A DNA stretch of 64,000 nucleotides from Candidatus Fermentibacterota bacterium. GTDB lineage: Bacteria; Fermentibacterota; Fermentibacteria; Fermentibacterales; JCC-6. The notes under the pieces were generated by a model. That model worked only from the letters and a program-made list of their open reading frames with translations, was not told the origin of the DNA and did not search any database. Positions 39,147 to 59,585 of the stretch are shown one piece after another (the stretch's first letter is position 1; each line of letters starts with the position of its first letter). The stretch is taken from positions 813,604-877,603 of the forward strand of contig CAWJQI010000005.1 in assembly GCA_963845085.1 (NCBI GenBank), written 5' to 3'. A program made the translations under genes and the position numbers.

Positions 39147-40385
39147 CTATCTGATGAAGAGCACCCTGGCGGATGCCTTCTGTTCAAGGTTTCGCAGCAC
39201 CACGAAATAAACGCCTGCCGCAAGATCGCTGCCCTGCGAATTCCTGCCGTCCCAGAAAGCGGTTTGCACGCCCGCCGGACAGCTGCCGAGTTCCTGCGCG
39301 TGAACAAGGCGGCCGGCAGTGTCATAGACTTCGAGGGTCGTTGCGGAAAGGCCCGGTGATTCAAACACAACCGAAGTACCGGTGCTGAAGGGGTTGGGCT
39401 GAACCGAAACGATCTCCAGCATGCAGGCGGATCCGCCCTCACCTGCTGAGTTCGTTATCTCCCTCAGACCGAGGCTGTGGTAGTTCCCCGCCGCGACTCC
39501 GACAAAAGACTCGTTCGGAGGGGGAACATCGCATTGAGCGTAATAGTTGTAGCCCCAGGCCGAAATGGTTCCGTCATTGCGCAGCCCCAGGCTGTGCGAA
39601 TCCCCCCCGACCGCCGAATTGAAACCCGTGTTTGGCGAGGGCACCTGGCACTGGCCGTACGAGTTGTAGCCCCAGGCGATGAGGGTTCCGTCAGCCTTGA
39701 GGCCGAAGCTGTGATCGGCCCCGCACCCGACCGCCACAAAACCCGTGTTGGGCCAGGGCACTTCACACTGGTCGTGCGCGTTGGAGCCCCAGGCGGCTAT
39801 CGTGCCGTCCGACCTGAGGCCGAGGTTGTGATGCGAACCGGCGGCTATGGCAATGAAACCCTCGTTGGGCTCGGGAACATCGCACTGGCCCATGTCGTTC
39901 CGGCCCCATGCCTCGATCGATCCGTTGTCCCTCAACCCCAGCGAGTGCTGGTAGCCGGCCGCAATTGCGATGAACGACTCGTTCGGTTCAGGCACGTTGC
40001 ACTGGCCGTACTCGTTGTAACCCCAGGCAACGATCGAGCCCGACTCCTTCAGGCCCAGGCTGAAAACCAGCCCGCCGGCAACCGCTTCGAAGCCTTCGTT
40101 GGGCTCGGGTACGTCGCACTGACCCACAATGTTGTAGCCCCAGGCGACAATCTCACCGCTTTGAAGCAGGCCCAGGCTGTGGCTGCCGCCCGCAGCGACC
40201 GCCACGAACCCCTCGTTGGGCTCGGGAACATCGCACTGGCCGTACTCATTGTTTCCCCATGCGAGAATCCCGCCGTTGTAGTCGGCTCCGGCAGCCCCGG
40301 AAAAAACAAGCACAAGAATCGGAACAAACGTCTTTTTAAACAGCCTTTTCACAACATGCCCTCCTGTTTTTGCATAATTCAGCAA
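39147..40385 (-). CDS. RCC1-like repeat protein with T9SS C-terminal sorting domain
   Basis: ~8 tandem ~34-aa units of the form (I/V)(V/A)AWG.N..GQCDVPEPNEGF(V/I)A(V/I)AAG..HSLGL. C-terminus QPNPFSTGTSVVF...VYDTAGRLV...AAGVYFVVLR...RVLFIR is a T9SS CTD. Confidence 0.7.
   Translation of the reverse strand: MLNYAKTGGHVVKRLFKKTFVPILVLVFSGAAGADYNGGILAWGNNEYGQCDVPEPNEGFVAVAAGGSHSLGLLQSGEIVAWGYNIVGQCDVPEPNEGFEAVAGGLVFSLGLKESGSIVAWGYNEYGQCNVPEPNESFIAIAAGYQHSLGLRDNGSIEAWGRNDMGQCDVPEPNEGFIAIAAGSHHNLGLRSDGTIAAWGSNAHDQCEVPWPNTGFVAVGCGADHSFGLKADGTLIAWGYNSYGQCQVPSPNTGFNSAVGGDSHSLGLRNDGTISAWGYNYYAQCDVPPPNESFVGVAAGNYHSLGLREITNSAGEGGSACMLEIVSVQPNPFSTGTSVVFESPGLSATTLEVYDTAGRLVHAQELGSCPAGVQTAFWDGRNSQGSDLAAGVYFVVLRNLEQKASARVLFIR
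39485..40280 (-). repeat. nucleotide-level tandem repeats (~100 nt period) encoding the RCC1-like units
   Basis: Recurring ...gtgccccgagcccaacgagggcttc... / ...gcctgggg(c/t)tacaac... blocks visible on the plus strand as reverse complements. Confidence 0.5.
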
Positions 40386-44565: not shown

Positions 44566-44841
44566 CTATCCTGAAAACAACTCGGAATGGGAACCTGCTC
44601 TTTCAAAGATCAGCATATCGCTTTCAATCTTATAGATAAGGAGCCAATCGGATTCCACATGGCATTCCCGTCTGCCGATATAACTGCCAACAAGCTGATG
44701 ATCCTTAAAGATCGGATCAAGTTTCTTCCCGGCGATCAACGACCTGGCAATCAGCTTGAATTGATCAATGTCTTTCCCCTGTTTTTCCGCAAGTTTGATG
44801 TCTTTTTTAAATTGCTTCGTGAAAACAGGACGATACATCAA
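44566..44841 (-). CDS. yafQ: type II toxin YafQ (RelE/ParE superfamily mRNA interferase)
   Basis: 91 aa. ...DHQLVGSYIGRRECHVESDWLLIYKIE... matches YafQ HxL.G...G.RECHI.PDWLLIY. Overlaps the upstream antitoxin gene by 4 nt. Lower-GC DNA. Confidence 0.8.
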   Translation of the reverse strand: MMYRPVFTKQFKKDIKLAEKQGKDIDQFKLIARSLIAGKKLDPIFKDHQLVGSYIGRRECHVESDWLLIYKIESDMLIFERAGSHSELFSG

Positions 44842-45104
44842 ATACCAAGCTTCTTGAACATGTCCTCCGCATTCTCGCAGAGAACAAGACCTTCACCGGA
44901 ATCGGTTTCATCCATCGTTCTCCTGGTAAGAGACGACGGTACAACCACATCAAAAGGCAGGCCGTTATTCATCTCTATCTGTTTGTAGTACAGTGTAATG
45001 GCTTGAGTTGTGGATAAGCCCAGACTCTGAAGGATTTCCTCTGCTTTTTCTTTAAGACTTGGTTCAAGCCTTGCTCTTACAGTAGCCGTCTTGCTCACAT
45101 TCAC
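44838..45104 (-). CDS. dinJ: antitoxin DinJ (RelB/DinJ family)
   Basis: 88 aa. N-terminal ribbon-helix-helix-like TVRARLEPSLKEKAEEILQSLGLSTTQAITLYYKQI. Immediately upstream of yafQ. Confidence 0.75.
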   Translation of the reverse strand: MNVSKTATVRARLEPSLKEKAEEILQSLGLSTTQAITLYYKQIEMNNGLPFDVVVPSSLTRRTMDETDSGEGLVLCENAEDMFKKLGI

Positions 45105-46652: not shown

Positions 46653-47921
46653 CTATGGATGCTGTTCTTTGCTGCGCACATGCAGGTAATACTTCTCTCT
46701 AATGAATTGCTCGTATGAGGATTCGGAGAACAGGCAATCGGGTTCGGTTCCAAACACGTGGTTGTACGGGCAACCACCAGCACAGGCTGGAAGCATTTTG
46801 CAGTCATAGCACGTGCTGGAATTGTTATAGGGATTGAAGGCATCCCATTTCGCATGCGTCATTACAATGCTTCGGACATCAAGGCCATAAGGCATTTCAT
46901 ATCTTTGTGTTTCGTTGGATGCAACTTCTCGCCAGCACTTCGCGATTCGGCCATCCGGCAGAACAACGATGCCGCTCATGTTCGTTGCAGTGCAGCCCGG
47001 CTGTCTTACCCCCAGGCAGTAGCGTGACATAGTGTCAGCTCCAACACATTTTGTAAGAATGTCACGATCTGGTTCGGCGCAACTATGTTTTGGGTAGTTT
47101 TTAATGGCTGCCGGGTATACATGCACCTGTGAATTGCTGCTGAACAGGTTTTTAACGTACTGAAAACTGCCTGCGGTCTCTGAATCAACATTCACGCGCA
47201 CGTTGATCCTCATGTGTTTTGATGCGCTGACAATGTTCCTAACCACAGTACGGTACGTTTCAATGCCACCGATCAATGGTCTGTTCCTGTTATGCCTTTC
47301 TGGAGGCCCATCCAGTGTGACCTGAGCAGATGTGACACCTATTTTAGATAATATTTTTGCTGTTGCTTCCTCAAGCAGGAACCCGTTAGATATAATTTGT
47401 GCCTGAAATTCGCATCCTTCGATTGAGTTCATTTCTTCCAGCAAAAAAATGCAAACATCCAGGTTGCAAAGCGGCTCACCCCCATAGAGAGTTATGAATG
47501 CGGCTTCTGAACCAAATTGCCTGCAGGCTTCGGCGATTGAGGATGCGGTCGCTTTGCTCATCGAAACCGGATCAAGACGCTTTTCGGTTTCGTAGCAGTA
47601 CCGACAATCGAAGTTGCATATTGTTGTCATTACTGCCGTTACTGCAAACGTTCCCTTGTGCTTCGCATTATCTGTAAGGATTCTTAGGTATTGCCTCTCA
47701 TCGAATGTTCCAGGTATCAGTGCGCCCATCTCGCAAAGTGTTTGGAACGTTTGCTCATCCTGGAAATGCAGGTCATCGGGACAAAGTGTCGATGACATCA
47801 CCTTCTCGAGCATTCCCCTCTTCCTGTCGTCGACCACTTTTACAAGCGCACCCGTGAAGCCGTTGTAAATAAGAAGGTAATCGCCCTCATCCAGCCACCA
47901 GTTGTACTGCGATAACTTCAT
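46653..47921 (-). CDS. radical SAM/SPASM-domain peptide-modifying enzyme (anSME-like maturase)
   Basis: ORF 46653..47954. The ATG at 47921 (MKLSQYNWW) with a GGAAG RBS is the likely start. CNFDCRYC radical-SAM cluster motif ~110 aa from the N-terminus (N-terminal extension). GGEPL motif. C-terminal CYDCKMLPACAGGC (CX2CX5CX3C SPASM). Confidence 0.8.
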   Translation of the reverse strand: MKLSQYNWWLDEGDYLLIYNGFTGALVKVVDDRKRGMLEKVMSSTLCPDDLHFQDEQTFQTLCEMGALIPGTFDERQYLRILTDNAKHKGTFAVTAVMTTICNFDCRYCYETEKRLDPVSMSKATASSIAEACRQFGSEAAFITLYGGEPLCNLDVCIFLLEEMNSIEGCEFQAQIISNGFLLEEATAKILSKIGVTSAQVTLDGPPERHNRNRPLIGGIETYRTVVRNIVSASKHMRINVRVNVDSETAGSFQYVKNLFSSNSQVHVYPAAIKNYPKHSCAEPDRDILTKCVGADTMSRYCLGVRQPGCTATNMSGIVVLPDGRIAKCWREVASNETQRYEMPYGLDVRSIVMTHAKWDAFNPYNNSSTCYDCKMLPACAGGCPYNHVFGTEPDCLFSESSYEQFIREKYYLHVRSKEQHP

Positions 47922-48222
47922 GCTTCCCTGGTTTCCCATCACAATACTGCACAATTTTGTTCGAGTAAATCAGGAGATAGCCCATTAGTTTCAGAAGCGC
48001 ATTTTCCGGTTGGTGCTCTCCCCCTCTTGGTGGCCGCAATGCTTGTCATTCCGAAGGTTCTTCAGCCTTTCCAGTACATCCTTTATTCCAAGTACGGCCC
48101 TGGGTCCACAATTTTCAAGTCAGCAATGAATCCACCCTTGCATGAGGATTCGCTCAACACCGCTCTCCCCTTCCGCTTGACATGCACCCGAGAAGCCCGA
48201 ATAGTGGCCACAGGGGTAGTAG

Positions 48223-50595: not shown

Positions 50596-50753
50596 CCTCG
50601 CGTCAGTGCGAATACTTGGCGGGTTATTGACCCCGCCCGTCGGTCAACACTATCATTCTCAGCGGGAAAATGGTTTGTAGAGCTGCGCCGTCGGCCGGCA
50701 CTTGTGTCGCGCTCGTAACCGCGCATGCAGGCACTTCAGCAAGGGGGGAACGG

Positions 50754-51827
50754 ATGAAATCGGTTCTGCTTGTTCTTGTGGCTTTTGCAGCAATCCCCGG
50801 CGCCACTGTAATTGACCACACATGCACCGATCTTGAAAGTATTCCCGCCACCTGGATCGACCTTGTCCAGAGCACCATGAAAAGCCACTACGCGCACACC
50901 TCCCACGGCGGCCAGCTCACATACGGGCTGGAATTCGTCGAACAGGGCGATCCCGCATACGCCTATCTCGTCGGAAGCAGTTACCTGCCATCCTCATCGA
51001 CTGCTTACTGCGTCTTCGACGGTCAGGAGTCAGAAACCTACATCACCCCCGAGCTTTACTGGGAAAGTGCAGCGGGCATCCAGATGACAAGGGATGTTCT
51101 CAACCACAATCCAACCATCTGCACGTCGATGTGGAGCTGGTGCACCCAGTGCGACTACTACTCCCAGGAGCAGGTTCAGGACTACCTCGATGTGATGAGC
51201 CAGCTTGAAAGCGAGTTCCCCGACGTTACGTTCATCTACTTCACCGGCAACGCGCAGTCGGAGGGATCAAGCGGCTACAACAGACATTTGCGGAACGAGC
51301 AGATCCGGGCCTACTGCCAGAGCAACGACAAGGTTCTTTTCGACTTCGCCGACCTCGACTGCTGGTGGTTCAACCCGGCGACGCAGACCTGGGAGCAGAA
51401 CACCTACTCCTACGGGGGGAGCGCCGTCCCCTCCGAACACCCCCACTTCTCGGGCGACGAGTACGGCCATACAACAGCTGAGAGCTGCGAGCAAAAGGGC
51501 CGTGCGTGGTGGTACATGATGGCTTTGCTTGCCGGCTGGTCGGGAACGGGGATCTCGGGACCCGCTGAAGGTCTCCTCCCTGCCGCCGTGACCGTATCCC
51601 CCAACCCGTCATCCGGCGTTTCATGCATTACCGTCGATCTCGCTTCCTCCGGGCGGGTGCGCGTGAGCGTGCTCGATCTCGCGGGAAGGGTTGTATACGA
51701 GTCCGACTCCACGCTCGAGAAAGGCATGCACACGTTCCCCGTCGTTCTCGGGCAGAGCGGCGTCTTCCTTGTCTCTGTCGAAGCGGGTGCCGAACGGCAC
51801 ATTTCAAGGCTTGTCACACTGGAATGA
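50754..51827 (+). CDS. secreted protein with T9SS C-terminal sorting domain
   Basis: ORF 50670..51827. Start moved to the ATG at 50754 (AAGGGGGG RBS, signal peptide MKSVLLVLVAFAAIPGA). C-terminus VSPNPSSGVSCITVDL...VSVLDLAGRVVYES...GVFLVSVE...RLVTLE. Confidence 0.65.
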   Translation: MKSVLLVLVAFAAIPGATVIDHTCTDLESIPATWIDLVQSTMKSHYAHTSHGGQLTYGLEFVEQGDPAYAYLVGSSYLPSSSTAYCVFDGQESETYITPELYWESAAGIQMTRDVLNHNPTICTSMWSWCTQCDYYSQEQVQDYLDVMSQLESEFPDVTFIYFTGNAQSEGSSGYNRHLRNEQIRAYCQSNDKVLFDFADLDCWWFNPATQTWEQNTYSYGGSAVPSEHPHFSGDEYGHTTAESCEQKGRAWWYMMALLAGWSGTGISGPAEGLLPAAVTVSPNPSSGVSCITVDLASSGRVRVSVLDLAGRVVYESDSTLEKGMHTFPVVLGQSGVFLVSVEAGAERHISRLVTLE

Positions 51828-54940: not shown

Positions 54941-55201
54941 TCATTTGTCGGCCATGGCGATGATCATCACCATGCCTGCCATGAGAATGATTGCCGCTGC
55001 AATGCCCGCGACGATGCAACTGAGCCTGGATCTCTGCGGGTACTCCATCTTTTCGTTATCGCCTGAAGCCTGAGGGATCGGGAGTTCCTCGGCCTGCAGC
55101 ATCACCCCGCAGTTGGGGCACTCCTTTGAGGCGCTGACAAACACGATCTTCTCGCACGAAGGGCACTTGGCAAAACTCACGTCTCCATCACCTCTTTCCA
55201 T
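54941..55201 (-). CDS. zinc-ribbon protein with C-terminal TM helix
   Basis: ORF 54941..55237; the ATG at 55201 is the likely start. CPSCEK...CPNCG zinc ribbon, then hydrophobic IVAGIAAAIILMAGMVMIIAM. Overlaps the 3' end of the rSAM gene by ~25 nt. Confidence 0.5.
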   Translation of the reverse strand: MERGDGDVSFAKCPSCEKIVFVSASKECPNCGVMLQAEELPIPQASGDNEKMEYPQRSRLSCIVAGIAAAIILMAGMVMIIAMADK

Positions 55202-56220
55202 CCGGCGTTGTGAACCTCGGGACAACCTGCATCGCAATCATATCGCTTTTCGCATGCGCCGCAGAAAGCAGGCATTCCGAACGTTCCAAGGGCGAAGTTC
55301 CTCCAGCGGGGATGCGAGGAGGCCTTCCTCCATTCCGTATGGTGGGCGATGCGCACACGGGAGTGGTTGCATACCCTGAGATAGCCCGATGGATCAATGG
55401 CGAAAAAGGTCTTTACCGCACTGCAGCGATACCCCACATGCAGCTTCCTGAGATCGGAAAGCCCCTCTACGCAAACCGGGAACTCGGTGCCGGTTGCCCC
55501 CGGAACACCCGATGCCACAAGCACGTCATCCGCGATGCGGATCATCTCCGAGAGGTCCCTCATATCCAGGGAAAGCTCGCCGATGTGCTTAAGCCCGCGC
55601 CCCCCGGGCAGGAAACGGTTCAAAAGAACCTGGCCGGCCCCGGCAAGGATCGCAGCGCTCATCGTCTCATAGAGTTCGAAAAGGTTCTTTTTTGTGACCG
55701 TGATGTTGGCAGTGGTTTTGACCCCGGCCTTCTTCGCCCTGCCGAAAAGGCCCAGGATCATCTCTGCGCCGGGATGCCCAGTATGCCATTCGTAGGTTGA
55801 AAGACCGGGCAGGCTGAGGCTGAGGGAAACTCCGAGACCGGAAAGCTCCCTGAGTACGGCTGAGGTGACCGTCCTGCCGTTTGAGAGAAGTGTGACCGTG
55901 GGTTGAACGCTTCTTGCGGCAAGCACACCGTCCACCTCCTCAACCAGCTCCACCTGCCGGTTGCGGGCGTGGGCAACCAGTTCGAGGCAGTCTTTCCGCA
56001 GCAGCGACTCGCCCCCTGTGAAGCCGAAGGAACTCACCCCCAGACCGCAGAGGGTGTCGATGAGACCCTTCCACTCCTGTGTGTCCATTTCCGGAAGCCT
56101 GGGGAAGTCATCACCGTACTCCCATGGGCATGAGCAGTACCTGCAGACGTGGTTGCACATGTAGGTGAGCTCAAGCACCGCCATCGATGGCAGGAAGGAG
56201 GGCGCTGCGACCCGGTTCAT
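55177..56220 (-). CDS. radical SAM/SPASM-domain enzyme (anSME/QhpD-like, no N-terminal RRE)
   Basis: CNHVCRYCS radical-SAM motif at residues ~22-30. GGESLL motif. C-terminal CGACEKRYDCDAGC (CX2CX5CX3C SPASM). Its ATG overlaps the upstream paralog stop (ATGA). Confidence 0.8.
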   Translation of the reverse strand: MNRVAAPSFLPSMAVLELTYMCNHVCRYCSCPWEYGDDFPRLPEMDTQEWKGLIDTLCGLGVSSFGFTGGESLLRKDCLELVAHARNRQVELVEEVDGVLAARSVQPTVTLLSNGRTVTSAVLRELSGLGVSLSLSLPGLSTYEWHTGHPGAEMILGLFGRAKKAGVKTTANITVTKKNLFELYETMSAAILAGAGQVLLNRFLPGGRGLKHIGELSLDMRDLSEMIRIADDVLVASGVPGATGTEFPVCVEGLSDLRKLHVGYRCSAVKTFFAIDPSGYLRVCNHSRVRIAHHTEWRKASSHPRWRNFALGTFGMPAFCGACEKRYDCDAGCPEVHNAGWKEVMET

Positions 56221-56804
56221 TCGATTCCCAGGATCGCCTGCAGCCTGTCGCCGTGTTCCCTCAGCGGACGCCTGGCATCGTAATTGTCGGTGTAGGACAG
56301 TTCCCCCGCAATGAACCCCTTGAGGATCTGAAGGTCGTTAAGGGTGACAGAGGTTCTCACGGTGTCGCCCTCGGCGTACACCAGAACGAGCCTGACGCCA
56401 CGCGAAGATTCTTCGTCGGGAAAACAGCGGCTGCAGTAGGTTTCCTCGAGAGACAATTCAAAGAAACCGTTGCCGGCCATTTCCTCAGTCATTCTGCGCA
56501 TCGTGGGAAGAAAGTACTGCACATTTTCTGCATCGGCATAGCCGTAGATGGTTCTTTCGCCGCACACCGGACAGATGTAGTCAGCCCTGTCGGGAAGGGC
56601 AATCGGCTCATAGCACATCGCTCCCATCACAAACTCGGGCTCGGGCTCCCTCTCCAGACGGTTGAGCATTACCCTGAGCCTTTCCCTGCCGCTCTCGATC
56701 CACCTCACTATGTTGGCCGGGGTTTTCTGCGCCCTTGCATGTCCGACGCCGTATGCGATCCCGGCCGCGGACAGAATGATGAACAAAACGTGCATCCAGC
56801 TCAT
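56217..56804 (-). CDS. signal-anchored Cys-motif protein, paralog 1 of 4 (novel family)
   Basis: 195 aa. N-terminal hydrophobic helix. Invariant GAMCY, CPVCGERT, ETYCSxC, EGDTVRT, L..ILGIE shared with three upstream paralogs. Confidence 0.6.
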   Translation of the reverse strand: MSWMHVLFIILSAAGIAYGVGHARAQKTPANIVRWIESGRERLRVMLNRLEREPEPEFVMGAMCYEPIALPDRADYICPVCGERTIYGYADAENVQYFLPTMRRMTEEMAGNGFFELSLEETYCSRCFPDEESSRGVRLVLVYAEGDTVRTSVTLNDLQILKGFIAGELSYTDNYDARRPLREHGDRLQAILGIE

Positions 56805-56823
56805 GGGTTCTCCTGTTCAGGCA

Positions 56824-57408
56824 TCACTCCATGCCGAGAATTGTCCGGAGGCGTTCCACCCTGTCCTTCAGGGGAAGAAGTGCATCCCTGTCGCTCCGGA
56901 ACACAAGACCTCCGCGCAGCAAGCCCTGGATCATCATCAGATCCTGACTGTTTACGACGGTTCTGACCGTGTCCCCCTCTTCGTATACGATCACGAGCCG
57001 AACACAGCCCTGATCGCCGGGATGGCAGAAACTGCAGTAGGTTTCCTCGAGAAAAGCCTCGAAGAACCCTGTTTCCGACAGACCCTCAGCCATTCTGCGC
57101 ATGCTTTGCAGGTCATTCTGAAGGAACCCTGCTTCCGGAGAGCCGTACAGCGTTCTCTCCCCGCAGACCGGGCATACGTACTCGGCCCTTTCGGGATGGG
57201 CCATCGGCCCGTAGCACATTGCACCCGGCACATACTCGGGGGCTTCCTCGAGTTCCACCCGTTCAAGCAGCCGCCGGATGTCTTCCCTGCGGCTCTTCAC
57301 CAGGTTGAACGCGCTGTTGGCTTTCCTTTGACCGCCCGCACCCAGCCCGACGCCGCAAGCTATCCCGGCGGCGGACAGGATGATGAGCAGAACGTGCAAC
57401 CAGCTCAA
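56824..57408 (-). CDS. signal-anchored Cys-motif protein, paralog 2
   Basis: 194 aa. Same motifs (GAMCY, CPVCGERT, ETYCSFC, EGDTVRT). Confidence 0.6.
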   Translation of the reverse strand: MSWLHVLLIILSAAGIACGVGLGAGGQRKANSAFNLVKSRREDIRRLLERVELEEAPEYVPGAMCYGPMAHPERAEYVCPVCGERTLYGSPEAGFLQNDLQSMRRMAEGLSETGFFEAFLEETYCSFCHPGDQGCVRLVIVYEEGDTVRTVVNSQDLMMIQGLLRGGLVFRSDRDALLPLKDRVERLRTILGME

Positions 57409-57423
57409 GCAGCTCCTCCCGGT

Positions 57424-58008
57424 CTACTCGATCCCGAGTATTGCCCGGAGCCTTTCGGTGTTGCCCTTGAGGGGCGCGATTGATTCATTGTTGGTCTCGT
57501 AGCTGAGTTCACCGTTGAGCAACCCTGTGATCATCTGAAGATCGGTCATGCCAACTGCCGTTCTGACCGTGTCGCCCTCGGAGTAGACCAGCACGAGTCT
57601 GGTTTCACCTGTTGAATCGGCGGGGTTGCAGTTGCTGCAGTAGGTTTCCTCGATGGAAGCCTCGAAGAACCCGTTGCCGCTCCACTCCTCGACCATCCTT
57701 CTCATTGCGGGAAGCTCCCACTGAATGCGTGCCGCCTCGCTCTGGCCGTAAAAGGTTCTCTCTCCGCACACGGGGCAGATGTACTCGACACGGTCCGGCG
57801 GGGCGACCGTGCTGTAGCACATGGCGCCCATCACGTACTCGGCCGCGTTCTCGCGTTCCACACGCTCGAGGAGAAGCCTCAGCCGCTCCCTTCCGCCGTG
57901 CATCATCCTGACCATCTTCATGGGATTTGCCAGAAATCCGGCGTGCCCGACACCGAAGGCAATCCCCGCGGCAGACAGTGCCAAAAGGGCAACAGCAATC
58001 CAGTTCAT
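57424..58008 (-). CDS. signal-anchored Cys-motif protein, paralog 3
   Basis: 194 aa. Same motifs (GAMCY, CPVCGERT, ETYCSNC, EGDTVRT). Confidence 0.6.
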   Translation of the reverse strand: MNWIAVALLALSAAGIAFGVGHAGFLANPMKMVRMMHGGRERLRLLLERVERENAAEYVMGAMCYSTVAPPDRVEYICPVCGERTFYGQSEAARIQWELPAMRRMVEEWSGNGFFEASIEETYCSNCNPADSTGETRLVLVYSEGDTVRTAVGMTDLQMITGLLNGELSYETNNESIAPLKGNTERLRAILGIE

Positions 58009-58028
58009 GGTTCAGCCCCCCTCAGTAA

Positions 58029-58692
58029 TCACTCGACACCGAGAACAACACGAAGCCGTTGGATCCTGTCCTTCAGAGGCTGCAGCGAGTCATAACTGTC
58101 TGCGAAGCTCAGTTCGCCCTGCACGAAACCGACGAGCATCTGAAGGTCGGACAGGTTCACGGCGGTGCTGACGGTGTCGCCGTCAGAGTAGACCAGATCA
58201 AGGATGAAACCCGGTTCGGATGATCGAATCGGCGCCCGAGCAGGTGCTGCAGAACGCGGATTCGTCAAGGAACGCCTGAAAGTACGGCGTTCCGTTGATT
58301 TCAAGCATGGCCCTCCGCATGGAGTCAGCCTCACGGGTCAGGGTGTAGGCGGCCTGTCCGCCGTACCATGTCCTCCCGCCGCAGACCGGGCAGATGTATT
58401 CCGCCCTTTCCGGAACAGCAGCCGTGCGGTAGCACATCGCTCCCATGACCACGTCAGGGGTCTCTTCGCGTTCGACCCTCTCAAGGAGAAGCCGTATGCC
58501 CTCCCTGCCGCTCCTGACGAGGCGGTTCACCGACACCGGCCCCTTTCCCTGCAACGAAAACCCGCGCCCAACGCCAAAGGCTGTTCCGACGGCTACAGCT
58601 GCCAGCACAATAACAACCCAGTTCATGAAAACCTCCCCGTACCGCTGATACACCCGAAACACCCTGCGGATTCCGCTGCCGGCCCCGTGCAT
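58029..58692 (-). pseudogene. paralog 4, split by a 1-nt frameshift
   Basis: ORF 58198..58692 carries the N-terminal two-thirds (GAMCY, CPVCGGRT, CSTC) and stops after ...GADSIIRTGFHP. ORF 58029..58334 in another frame carries the C-terminal third (ILDLVYSDGDTVSTAVNLSDLQ...VVLGVE). The junction lies at a ccgggttt homopolymer run. Confidence 0.5.
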
Positions 58693-58730: not shown

Positions 58731-59585
58731 ATGAGTACGGAGAAAAACGTTGAGATGCTGGTCAGACCCGCCACTTCCGCCGATCTGCCGGGTCTTGAGG
58801 AGATATCAAGGCTCACCTGGGACGGGTACGACTACCTTGACCAGGTCGCTGGCGACTGGATAAGCGAGGGAAATCTCTTCACCGGGATATCCGACGGCAG
58901 AGTCGTGGCCTGCGCCCGGTTCACAAGGGTGCCGGGGGACATCCTGTGGCTCGAGGGGTTGAGGGTTCACCCCGACTACAGGGGACGGGGGTACGGCAGG
59001 ACGATCAGCGAACACATCCTGGAGCAGTGCAGAAAGCTTGTGGAGTCTCGCGAGGCCAGGGGCATAGAGTTCTCGACCTACTCGCTCAACGCCGAGAGCC
59101 GGGGGCTTTCCGAGAAGCAGGGCTTCAGGGTCACGGAATGGTTCCACATCCTCTACCGCGAAGGGATGCCCGCCGCCCTCTGCGGCATCGAGCCCTACGA
59201 ACCGGTCATCGAGGATTTCTCGATTTACCCGGAAAGGGTCTCGGTGGGGTGGAAGTATGCCCGCTGGCATGAACCGGGTTTCCTCGACTGGTTCAGGAGC
59301 GTGGCGCGGGCCTGGCGCACCGAGACGGGCGCAACCTTCCTCACAAGCCTGAGGGACGACGAAGCCTCGCCGCTCGCCTCCGCCTTTTCAGACAAGGATG
59401 GATTCTTCAACGGTCTGCGTGCATTTGCATCGCTGCATGCAAGAACAAACCTGGAGCTCTTCCTGCACGATTCGATGAAGGACATGATTGCTGCGGCTAA
59501 AACCCACGGCTGGGGCTACTGGGAGAATCCTGACAGCTCGAATGTGCCGGTGTATTCATTCGGGGAATCACCAGACTCAGAATGA
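58731..59585 (+). CDS. GNAT-family N-acetyltransferase
   Basis: Acetyl-CoA-binding motif region VHPDYRGRGYGRTI. Divergent from the paralog operon. Confidence 0.7.
   Translation: MSTEKNVEMLVRPATSADLPGLEEISRLTWDGYDYLDQVAGDWISEGNLFTGISDGRVVACARFTRVPGDILWLEGLRVHPDYRGRGYGRTISEHILEQCRKLVESREARGIEFSTYSLNAESRGLSEKQGFRVTEWFHILYREGMPAALCGIEPYEPVIEDFSIYPERVSVGWKYARWHEPGFLDWFRSVARAWRTETGATFLTSLRDDEASPLASAFSDKDGFFNGLRAFASLHARTNLELFLHDSMKDMIAAAKTHGWGYWENPDSSNVPVYSFGESPDSE

Follow-up and report, generated by a model that had tools for sequence, protein, structure and literature searches.

Presented here is an analysis of a six-gene operon located on the minus strand of a 64,000-nucleotide stretch of DNA from Candidatus Fermentibacterota bacterium (contig CAWJQI010000005.1, positions 813,604 to 877,603 of the forward strand), hereafter referred to as the window. 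The first four genes encode tandem paralogous proteins of ∼195 amino acid residues, copies A to D, and the fifth encodes a radical S-adenosylmethionine (rSAM) enzyme of the SPASM type that lacks a recognition element (RRE) for peptides that are made by the ribosome and modified after translation (RiPPs). The four proteins are probably dedicated substrates of this co-translated enzyme, with an A-M-C-Y loop in each as the likely site of modification. Such a role is suggested because one enzyme is accompanied by a variable number of adjacent genes, because an invariant motif is carried by interchangeable scaffolds, and because the logic resembles that of anSME and QhpD. Modification of a ribosomal product by an rSAM/SPASM enzyme is a known kind of system; what is new is the motif, the fold of the substrates, and the variety of scaffolds. 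More tentatively, we suggest that the Cys-Tyr pair of the A-x-C-Y motif receives a hitherto unknown modification from this clade of enzymes, either a crosslink or an oxidized cysteine.

The association between the family and the enzyme was surveyed from both sides. Taking one genome per GTDB species, 61 loci encoding the family were collected, all from metagenome-assembled genomes (MAGs), and 54 of these had sufficient downstream DNA to be testable. The rSAM gene lies directly downstream and on the same strand in 47 of the 54, preceded by one to four modules and separated by a median gap of 12 nt. Of the seven orphan loci, six belong to assemblies in which a linked locus is also present. The survey from the enzyme side covered 80 metagenomic loci (76 testable), and one to five family modules are positioned directly upstream of the rSAM gene in 71 of the 76. 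With respect to the remaining five, a module is found directly downstream in two (L114 and L137), a divergent, anchor-less protein with the sequence AMAMCY lies directly upstream in L133, and a short A-x-C-Y form occupies the same position in L134. In L147, the protein encoded directly upstream is anchor-less and contains ADCY and the CxxC knuckles; the family hidden Markov model (HMM) aligned only its CPKCG knuckle.

Seen from either side, the linkage is near-obligate, and at least six phyla are represented, the taxa on the family side being Fermentibacteria (Hyd24-12, Aegiribacteria, and Sabulitectum), Verrucomicrobiota, Kiritimatiellia, Planctomycetia/Anaerohalosphaeraceae, Armatimonadia, Bacteroidales, and Melainabacteria. 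These counts bear out the dedicated and conserved partnership for which an earlier note on this DNA, made by a model from the letters and their open reading frames, had proposed a co-occurrence search. In the lineages surveyed, the pair has no further conserved neighbor. The gene for a 79-residue zinc-ribbon/transmembrane (TM) protein that closes the operon was considered as a core component and dropped; confined to six close Fermentibacteraceae loci, it is a lineage-specific accessory. Hundreds of uncultured anaerobes carry the pair, as do contigs from human-gut metagenomes (L142 and L148), and a large helicase-like gene is located upstream of it in L148. In the Melainabacteria (L002/L070, 10321-12078), the pair is followed by genes for a 173-residue, repeat-rich, secreted-looking protein and a second rSAM/SPASM enzyme (404 residues), which may constitute a separate maturase cluster.

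The element that always stands beside this clade of rSAM enzymes is the A-x-C-Y motif. It is usually situated ∼12 residues past an amphipathic helix (...REEL..L..L...P), and it was observed in six types of scaffold. The N-anchored zinc-ribbon proteins, to which the window's copies belong, represent the first. Anchor-less proteins (∼10 of 227 sampled) form the second, an example of which is the 188-residue family protein of L148, a 110-kb human-gut contig, whose gene overlaps the start of the rSAM gene. The third type consists of fusions of two or three modules with an anchor on the first module only. In the fourth, anchor-less GACCY modules are joined to a C-terminal DksA/TraR C4 zinc finger (PF01258, E = 4e-11); the genes for these fusions (P0293 and P0347; L151 3761-4837 and L152 1527-2603) are still located directly upstream of the rSAM gene, and the added domain hints at a role in signaling, regulation, or transcription.

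The last two scaffolds carry export signals. Long forms with a textbook twin-arginine translocation (Tat) motif and a lipobox (L154 and L146) make up the fifth type, and Tat-lipoproteins of 60-112 residues with one or two A(C/M/D)CY motifs the sixth. The short forms are built from a Tat-lipobox signal, an A(C/M)CY motif a few residues past the lipid-anchor cysteine, an acidic linker, a helix, and a second A(M/D)CY motif. Their genes occur in tandem (L134 101-469; L153 4752-5690; L154 5329-7759), and in L134 and L154 they directly precede a gene of the same rSAM clade. Limited to a minority lineage, these short proteins have no Cys4 site and yet retain the motif.

An exhaustive HMM search gave the size of the family as 1,009 clusters at 50% identity with E ≤ 1e-3, or 826 at E ≤ 1e-10. 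Copies A to D match the family HMM with E-values of 1e-48 to 1e-78, which is not a chance result. The ratios of nonsynonymous to synonymous substitution rates (dN/dS) relative to the orthologs in MAG UBA6080 are 0.12, 0.23, and 0.18 for copies B, C, and D, respectively, and these three copies are under purifying selection. No Pfam, NCBIfam, PADLOC, or PHROG model matches the copies, and none of 63 family members is matched by Pfam at E ≤ 0.001. Likewise, no relative of solved fold was detected, and no description of the substrate family or its pairing with the rSAM enzyme was found in open-access texts. The paralogs matched no well-known family in these searches, in keeping with the earlier note, whose author did not recognize the family and called the system a candidate undescribed one.

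Copy B has a TM segment at residues 3-21. Its predicted model is confident (pLDDT, the predicted local distance difference test score, of 85.7; pTM, the predicted template modeling score, of 0.76) and begins with a TM helix (residues 3-19), after which come two helices (29-36 and 39-52), the AMCY loop (61-65, with the motif itself at 62-65), and an α/β domain. In this model C78-P-V-C81-G lies between strands 73-77 and 84-88, and C124-x-x-C127 follows strand 116-121. Both CxxC pairs are positioned at β-hairpin turns, in the manner of two zinc-ribbon knuckles. Conservation was counted over 428 unique modules. Cys 78 is kept in all 428, Ala 62, Cys 64, and Tyr 65 in 425 each, Glu 121 in 423, Cys 127 in 420, Cys 124 in 419, Asp 156 in 415, and Cys 81 in 414. 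Weak matches to zinc ribbons were observed in Pfam (E = 0.009-0.09) and in the PDB (Nop10 and L37ae, E = 0.006-0.04). The simplest reading is that four of the five conserved cysteines form a structural zinc ribbon rather than serve as crosslink donors, and only the AMCY cysteine stands out as a candidate donor. Mean-field direct coupling analysis on the 428 modules was dominated by gap artefacts; its sole signal, between positions 63 and 146, was too weak to be of use.

In the rSAM enzyme, the CX3CX2C motif takes the form CNHVCRYC (residues 22-29, encoded at 56134-56157) followed by SC, and the sole Pfam match is to the Radical_SAM core (PF04055, E = 1.2e-17, residues 17-186). On the basis of these features the enzyme is assigned to the radical SAM superfamily. 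The SPASM cysteines, read directly from the translation (∼55222-55473), are C250, C266-x12-G-x4-C284, and C320-x2-C-x5-C-x3-C333. All seven are invariant or nearly so in 31 homologs, which likewise keep the clade signature CNHxCxFCSCPW and NRFLPGGRG. The Pfam SPASM model PF13186 gave no match to the enzyme, and it is by the full seven-cysteine motif that it is placed in the SPASM subgroup. Note that the core begins at about residue 13 and so leaves no room for an RRE. Indeed, no PqqD-like RRE domain is fused to the enzyme, and no neighboring gene beyond those of the substrate family is conserved. The earlier note was therefore correct in describing an RRE-less rSAM/SPASM enzyme with its cluster motif near residue 22.

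The AlphaFold model of the enzyme is confident (pLDDT of 92.5), and its closest structural neighbors are peptide- or protein-modifying enzymes. Its best NCBIfam matches are AhbD, PqqE, ScmF, NirJ2, and MftC, all far under the cutoffs. Neither the QhpD model (TIGR03906) nor the anSME model (TIGR03942) is among the best 25 NCBIfam matches, and this comparison revealed no specific tie to either enzyme. A reading of the operon as a defense system was dropped, the sole PADLOC matches being viperin models that hit the generic rSAM core.

The location of the substrate domain relative to the membrane can be judged from the residues flanking the hydrophobic segment. Lys or Arg precedes this segment in only seven of 174 anchored members, and a net positive charge is found just after it in 129 of the 174. 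The window's copies have no Lys or Arg before the segment, Lys or Arg soon after it, and no Tat (RR) motif. From this pattern, the most likely arrangement is an N-out/C-in anchor with a cytoplasmic domain. The latter is also favored because a domain exported co-translationally would never meet a cytoplasmic rSAM enzyme. A minority of relatives carries Tat-plus-lipobox signals and is therefore exported. The Tat system exports proteins that have already folded in the cytoplasm, and its use by the exported variants is as expected if cytoplasmic modification comes first. The cytoplasmic assignment is worded with caution because these Tat-lipoproteins exist and because part of the positive charge past the anchor belongs to the conserved helix. 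In the earlier note the proteins were thought to be secreted or periplasmic. For the window's copies that view is not supported, considering their charge pattern, their lack of a Tat motif, and the existence of anchor-less and DksA/TraR-fused relatives; it does apply to the minority of Tat-lipoproteins.

In the mechanism envisaged, the enzyme would act in the cytoplasm and would recognize a short linear element, the A-M-C-Y loop, usually placed after the conserved amphipathic helix. Hydrogen abstraction by the 5'-deoxyadenosyl radical would modify the cysteine, the Cys-Tyr pair, or a residue brought adjacent to it. The outcome could be a thioether or another crosslink, whether to a nearby residue or between Cys and Tyr, or an oxidation of the cysteine. 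The nearly invariant Glu 121 and Asp 156 are possible thioether partners. The remainder of the protein would be a structural Zn(Cys)4 ribbon within an α/β domain of an unmatched fold, and in the window's copies the N-terminal helix would tether this domain to the membrane, likely on the cytoplasmic face. The occurrence of one enzyme per one to five gene copies, together with the fusions and the orphan extra loci, is counted in favor of many substrates for a single enzyme.

Several points weigh against this proposal. The substrate role is predicted from gene linkage and motif conservation. The window's putative substrates are folded proteins conserved along their entire lengths, unlike typical peptides, and in RiPP precursors conservation usually peaks in the leader rather than in the core. 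The short and divergent forms score weakly against the family HMM (5-11 bits), and their membership relies on the motif and on gene position. The topology is predicted from charge rules, and ∼20% of the N-anchored members display a lipobox-like cysteine after the hydrophobic segment. Finally, the co-operonic linkage would also fit an obligate partner subunit.

That last alternative, in which the family proteins are obligate partners of the enzyme rather than its substrates, is considered unlikely. They might then function as membrane tethers or scaffolds, or as rubredoxin-like electron donors with iron in the Cys4 site, and the real substrate would be a small molecule, a lipid, or an unlinked protein. 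A model for the electron donor is Dph3, which feeds electrons to Dph1-Dph2. The tight linkage and translational coupling of the genes would be in keeping with such a role, as would a folded domain that is conserved over its whole length and contains a Cys4 site. Small-molecule enzymes, AhbD and NirJ, are moreover among the best NCBIfam similarities of the enzyme, far under the cutoffs as these are. A partner subunit would be expected in fixed stoichiometry, however, and what is observed instead is one to five paralogs, orphan extra loci, and fusions of two or three modules. The short Tat-lipoproteins lacking the Cys4 site keep the A-x-C-Y motif and still precede the rSAM gene, and an exported partner would be of no use to an enzyme in the cytoplasm. 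The closest structural neighbors of the enzyme also argue for a peptide or protein as the substrate.

The earlier note offered a different model, namely that these are secreted or periplasmic, Cys-rich proteins in which several cysteines are crosslinked to Asp or Glu by a QhpD-like enzyme. Such a scheme appears improbable, notwithstanding the RRE-less enzyme with its SPASM domain, the near-invariance of Glu 121 and Asp 156, and the signs of export in some relatives, whether the Tat-plus-lipobox signals of a minority or the lipobox-like cysteine in about a fifth of the N-anchored members. The charges flanking the hydrophobic segment of the window's copies and the absence of an RR motif speak against secretion, as do the anchor-less and DksA/TraR-fused relatives. 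Four of the five conserved cysteines are situated in two zinc-ribbon-type CxxC knuckles. Furthermore, no qhp-like genes for dehydrogenase subunits, a protease, a flavoprotein, or an exporter are found nearby, and TIGR03906 is missing from the 25 best NCBIfam matches. It is likewise doubtful that the genes form a classical RiPP pathway, one that cuts out and releases a small modified peptide or cofactor as in the case of PQQ or mycofactocin: tandem multi-copy genes directly before a SPASM maturase, precursor-like relatives of 60-112 residues, and a Tyr conserved after Cys (compare MftA, ...CGVY, and PqqA, E...Y) are indeed suggestive of one, but the motif sits midway in a folded domain that is itself conserved, the lipobox and TM anchors point to a product that is retained at the membrane, and in none of the lineages does a conserved protease, transporter, or additional tailoring enzyme accompany the pair.

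Coordinates of the operon are provided in Table 1. The six genes are tightly packed between 58626 and 54941, and the four paralogs share pairwise identities of 46-58% over their full lengths. As the earlier note had described, each begins with an N-terminal hydrophobic segment and contains the GAMCY motif along with CPVCG(E/G)RT, CSxC, (E/D)GDTV, and LG(I/M/V)E. Its account of spacers of 15-20 nt was likewise accurate (20, 15, and 19 nt), as was that of the overlaps between the stop of copy D and the ATG of the rSAM gene (ATGA) and between the rSAM stop and the GTG start of the zinc-ribbon/TM gene (GTGA).

Table 1. Features of the operon, in window coordinates
Feature	Position	Strand	Remarks
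Copy A, AMCY/zinc-ribbon family	58029..58626	-	one-base insertion near 58228-58232; corrected product ∼198 aa, all motifs retained
Copy B (= P0001)	57424..58008	-	intact, 194 aa
Copy C	56824..57408	-	intact, 194 aa, TTG start
Copy D	56217..56804	-	intact, 195 aa; stop overlaps rSAM start codon
A-M-C-Y codons, copy A	58429..58440	-	putative modification site; read directly from sequence
A-M-C-Y codons, copy B	57814..57825	-	putative modification site
A-M-C-Y codons, copy C	57211..57222	-	putative modification site
A-M-C-Y codons, copy D	56610..56621	-	putative modification site
Radical SAM/SPASM enzyme, 347 aa, without RRE	55177..56220	-	
Zinc-ribbon (CPSC...CPNC) protein, 79 aa, C-terminal TM helix	54941..55180	-	GTG start

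Four paralogs of ∼194 residues had been counted in the earlier note. They are in tandem and can be aligned from end to end, but only copies B, C, and D are intact. Copy A, the promoter-proximal gene, is broken into two open reading frames (58198-58692 and 58029-58334) by one extra base, located near 58228-58232 by alignment with its orthologs in L011 and L012, and its span of 598 nt corresponds to 3n+1. Homology places its start at the ATG at 58626 (MNW...) rather than at 58692 as previously assigned, and a ribosome-binding site, GGGGAGG, is present at 58631-58637. Since all conserved motifs survive correction of the frame, the break is either a very recent mutation, and thus a fresh pseudogene, or an assembly error. 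Split copies are also present in the arrays of L048 and L154, that of L154 being a frameshifted long form.

Copies B to D (window 56102-58008) are 85.6% identical to a three-copy locus in MAG UBA6080 (L010 6001-7904). This locus is without an rSAM gene, but ∼118 nt of the 5' end of that gene remain. Copy A, the rSAM gene, and the flanks match the other locus of UBA6080, L011, at 69-71%. The operon thus looks mosaic, which suggests duplication and recombination among arrays. Scans of the operon with Rfam and for promoters and terminators yielded nothing useful. Adjoining it is a divergently transcribed gene for a GNAT acetyltransferase (58731-59585, plus strand; PF00583, E = 5e-13), whose position is conserved only in the closest relatives, L011-L016.

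Elsewhere in the window, a second rSAM gene (46653-47954, minus strand) encodes a RiPP-maturase-like protein of 433 residues with an N-terminal extension, which is unrelated to the operon. Its matches are to the FlmE/OhkG family (E = 3.5e-48), TIGR04463, and CefB, all under the cutoffs. The GC content of the 44-48 kb stretch is 0.49-0.52 versus ∼0.60 elsewhere, and at the edge of this low-GC region two overlapping genes for proteins of 91 and 88 residues (44566-45104, minus strand) resemble, by eye, a RelE/YafQ-type toxin/antitoxin pair. Type IX secretion C-terminal sorting domains (Por_Secre_tail/CHU_C) are encoded at 50670-51827 (plus strand) and 39147-40385 (minus strand), one of these proteins carrying RCC1 repeats. 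Such domains fit an origin of the window in the Fermentibacteria/FCB group.

To our knowledge, rSAM/SPASM enzymes that modify whole proteins are few, namely anSME, QhpD, and a handful more. Each of those known has revealed new chemistry or a new protein-derived cofactor. If the proposal put forward here is correct, a new protein-derived cofactor or crosslink would be used by membrane-tethered zinc-ribbon proteins and mini-lipoproteins that make up a large family in uncultured anaerobes, with some of the contigs coming from human-gut metagenomes. The system is a portable two-gene unit of an enzyme and an invariant four-residue motif, distributed over ∼1,000 clusters having no annotation and no known fold. 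A model of the family would give a name to several hundred clusters of "hypothetical proteins", and the natural forms of 60-112 residues would be ready-made minimal substrates. If the enzyme truly recognizes a short motif, it might serve as a tool for site-specific protein modification.

With respect to known systems, the pairs MftC/MftA and PqqE/PqqA are similar in that SPASM enzymes act on a ribosomal product at an invariant motif with a Tyr, and the present enzyme gives weak full-length matches to MftC and PqqE, among others, in NCBIfam and the PDB. Their precursors, however, are peptides of 20-30 residues, and they need an RRE chaperone (MftB or PqqD) and downstream processing enzymes that are absent here. 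The RiPP rSAM/SPASM maturases with tandem precursors (SkfB, CteB, SuiB, and PapB/SCIFF-type) resemble the present system in having several precursor-like genes directly upstream, a helix ahead of the modified motif, and, in the short relatives, proteins of 60-112 residues. They differ in that no RRE in cis or nearby, no protease, and no exporter accompany the present enzyme, that its usual putative substrates are folded zinc-ribbon proteins of ∼200 residues, and that the presumed core motif is invariant rather than variable. The window's putative precursors of 194-195 residues, their invariant motif, and the lack of a conserved protease or transporter around the pair all depart from the hallmarks of a RiPP cluster.

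QhpD forms intra-protein thioethers between Cys and Asp or Glu in a single-turnover manner (PMC7876137). Here, too, an rSAM gene shares an operon with the gene for its putative protein substrate, and a conserved Cys is accompanied by near-invariant Glu and Asp residues. QhpC has a 28-residue leader, which is needed by QhpD; QhpC is processed by the protease QhpE, is exported, and works with QhpA, QhpB, and QhpG. Genes of the qhpABCDEG type were not found near the window's operon or its relatives, a single cysteine is the candidate donor, and QhpD bears no specific sequence relationship to the enzyme described here.

The cytoplasmic enzyme anSME acts on a short linear Cys motif in full-length proteins, some of which are later exported. 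The motif in the present family, A-M-C-Y-x-(P/T), differs from the C/S-x-P/A-x-R of anSME substrates, the proteins have no sulfatase domain, and the enzyme resembles the anSME model too weakly for that model to rank among the top NCBIfam matches. The gene for the enzyme here always adjoins those of its putative substrates and is translationally coupled to them. Both enzymes are RRE-less rSAM/SPASM proteins with two auxiliary clusters, and in both cases very different proteins have a short Cys motif in common.

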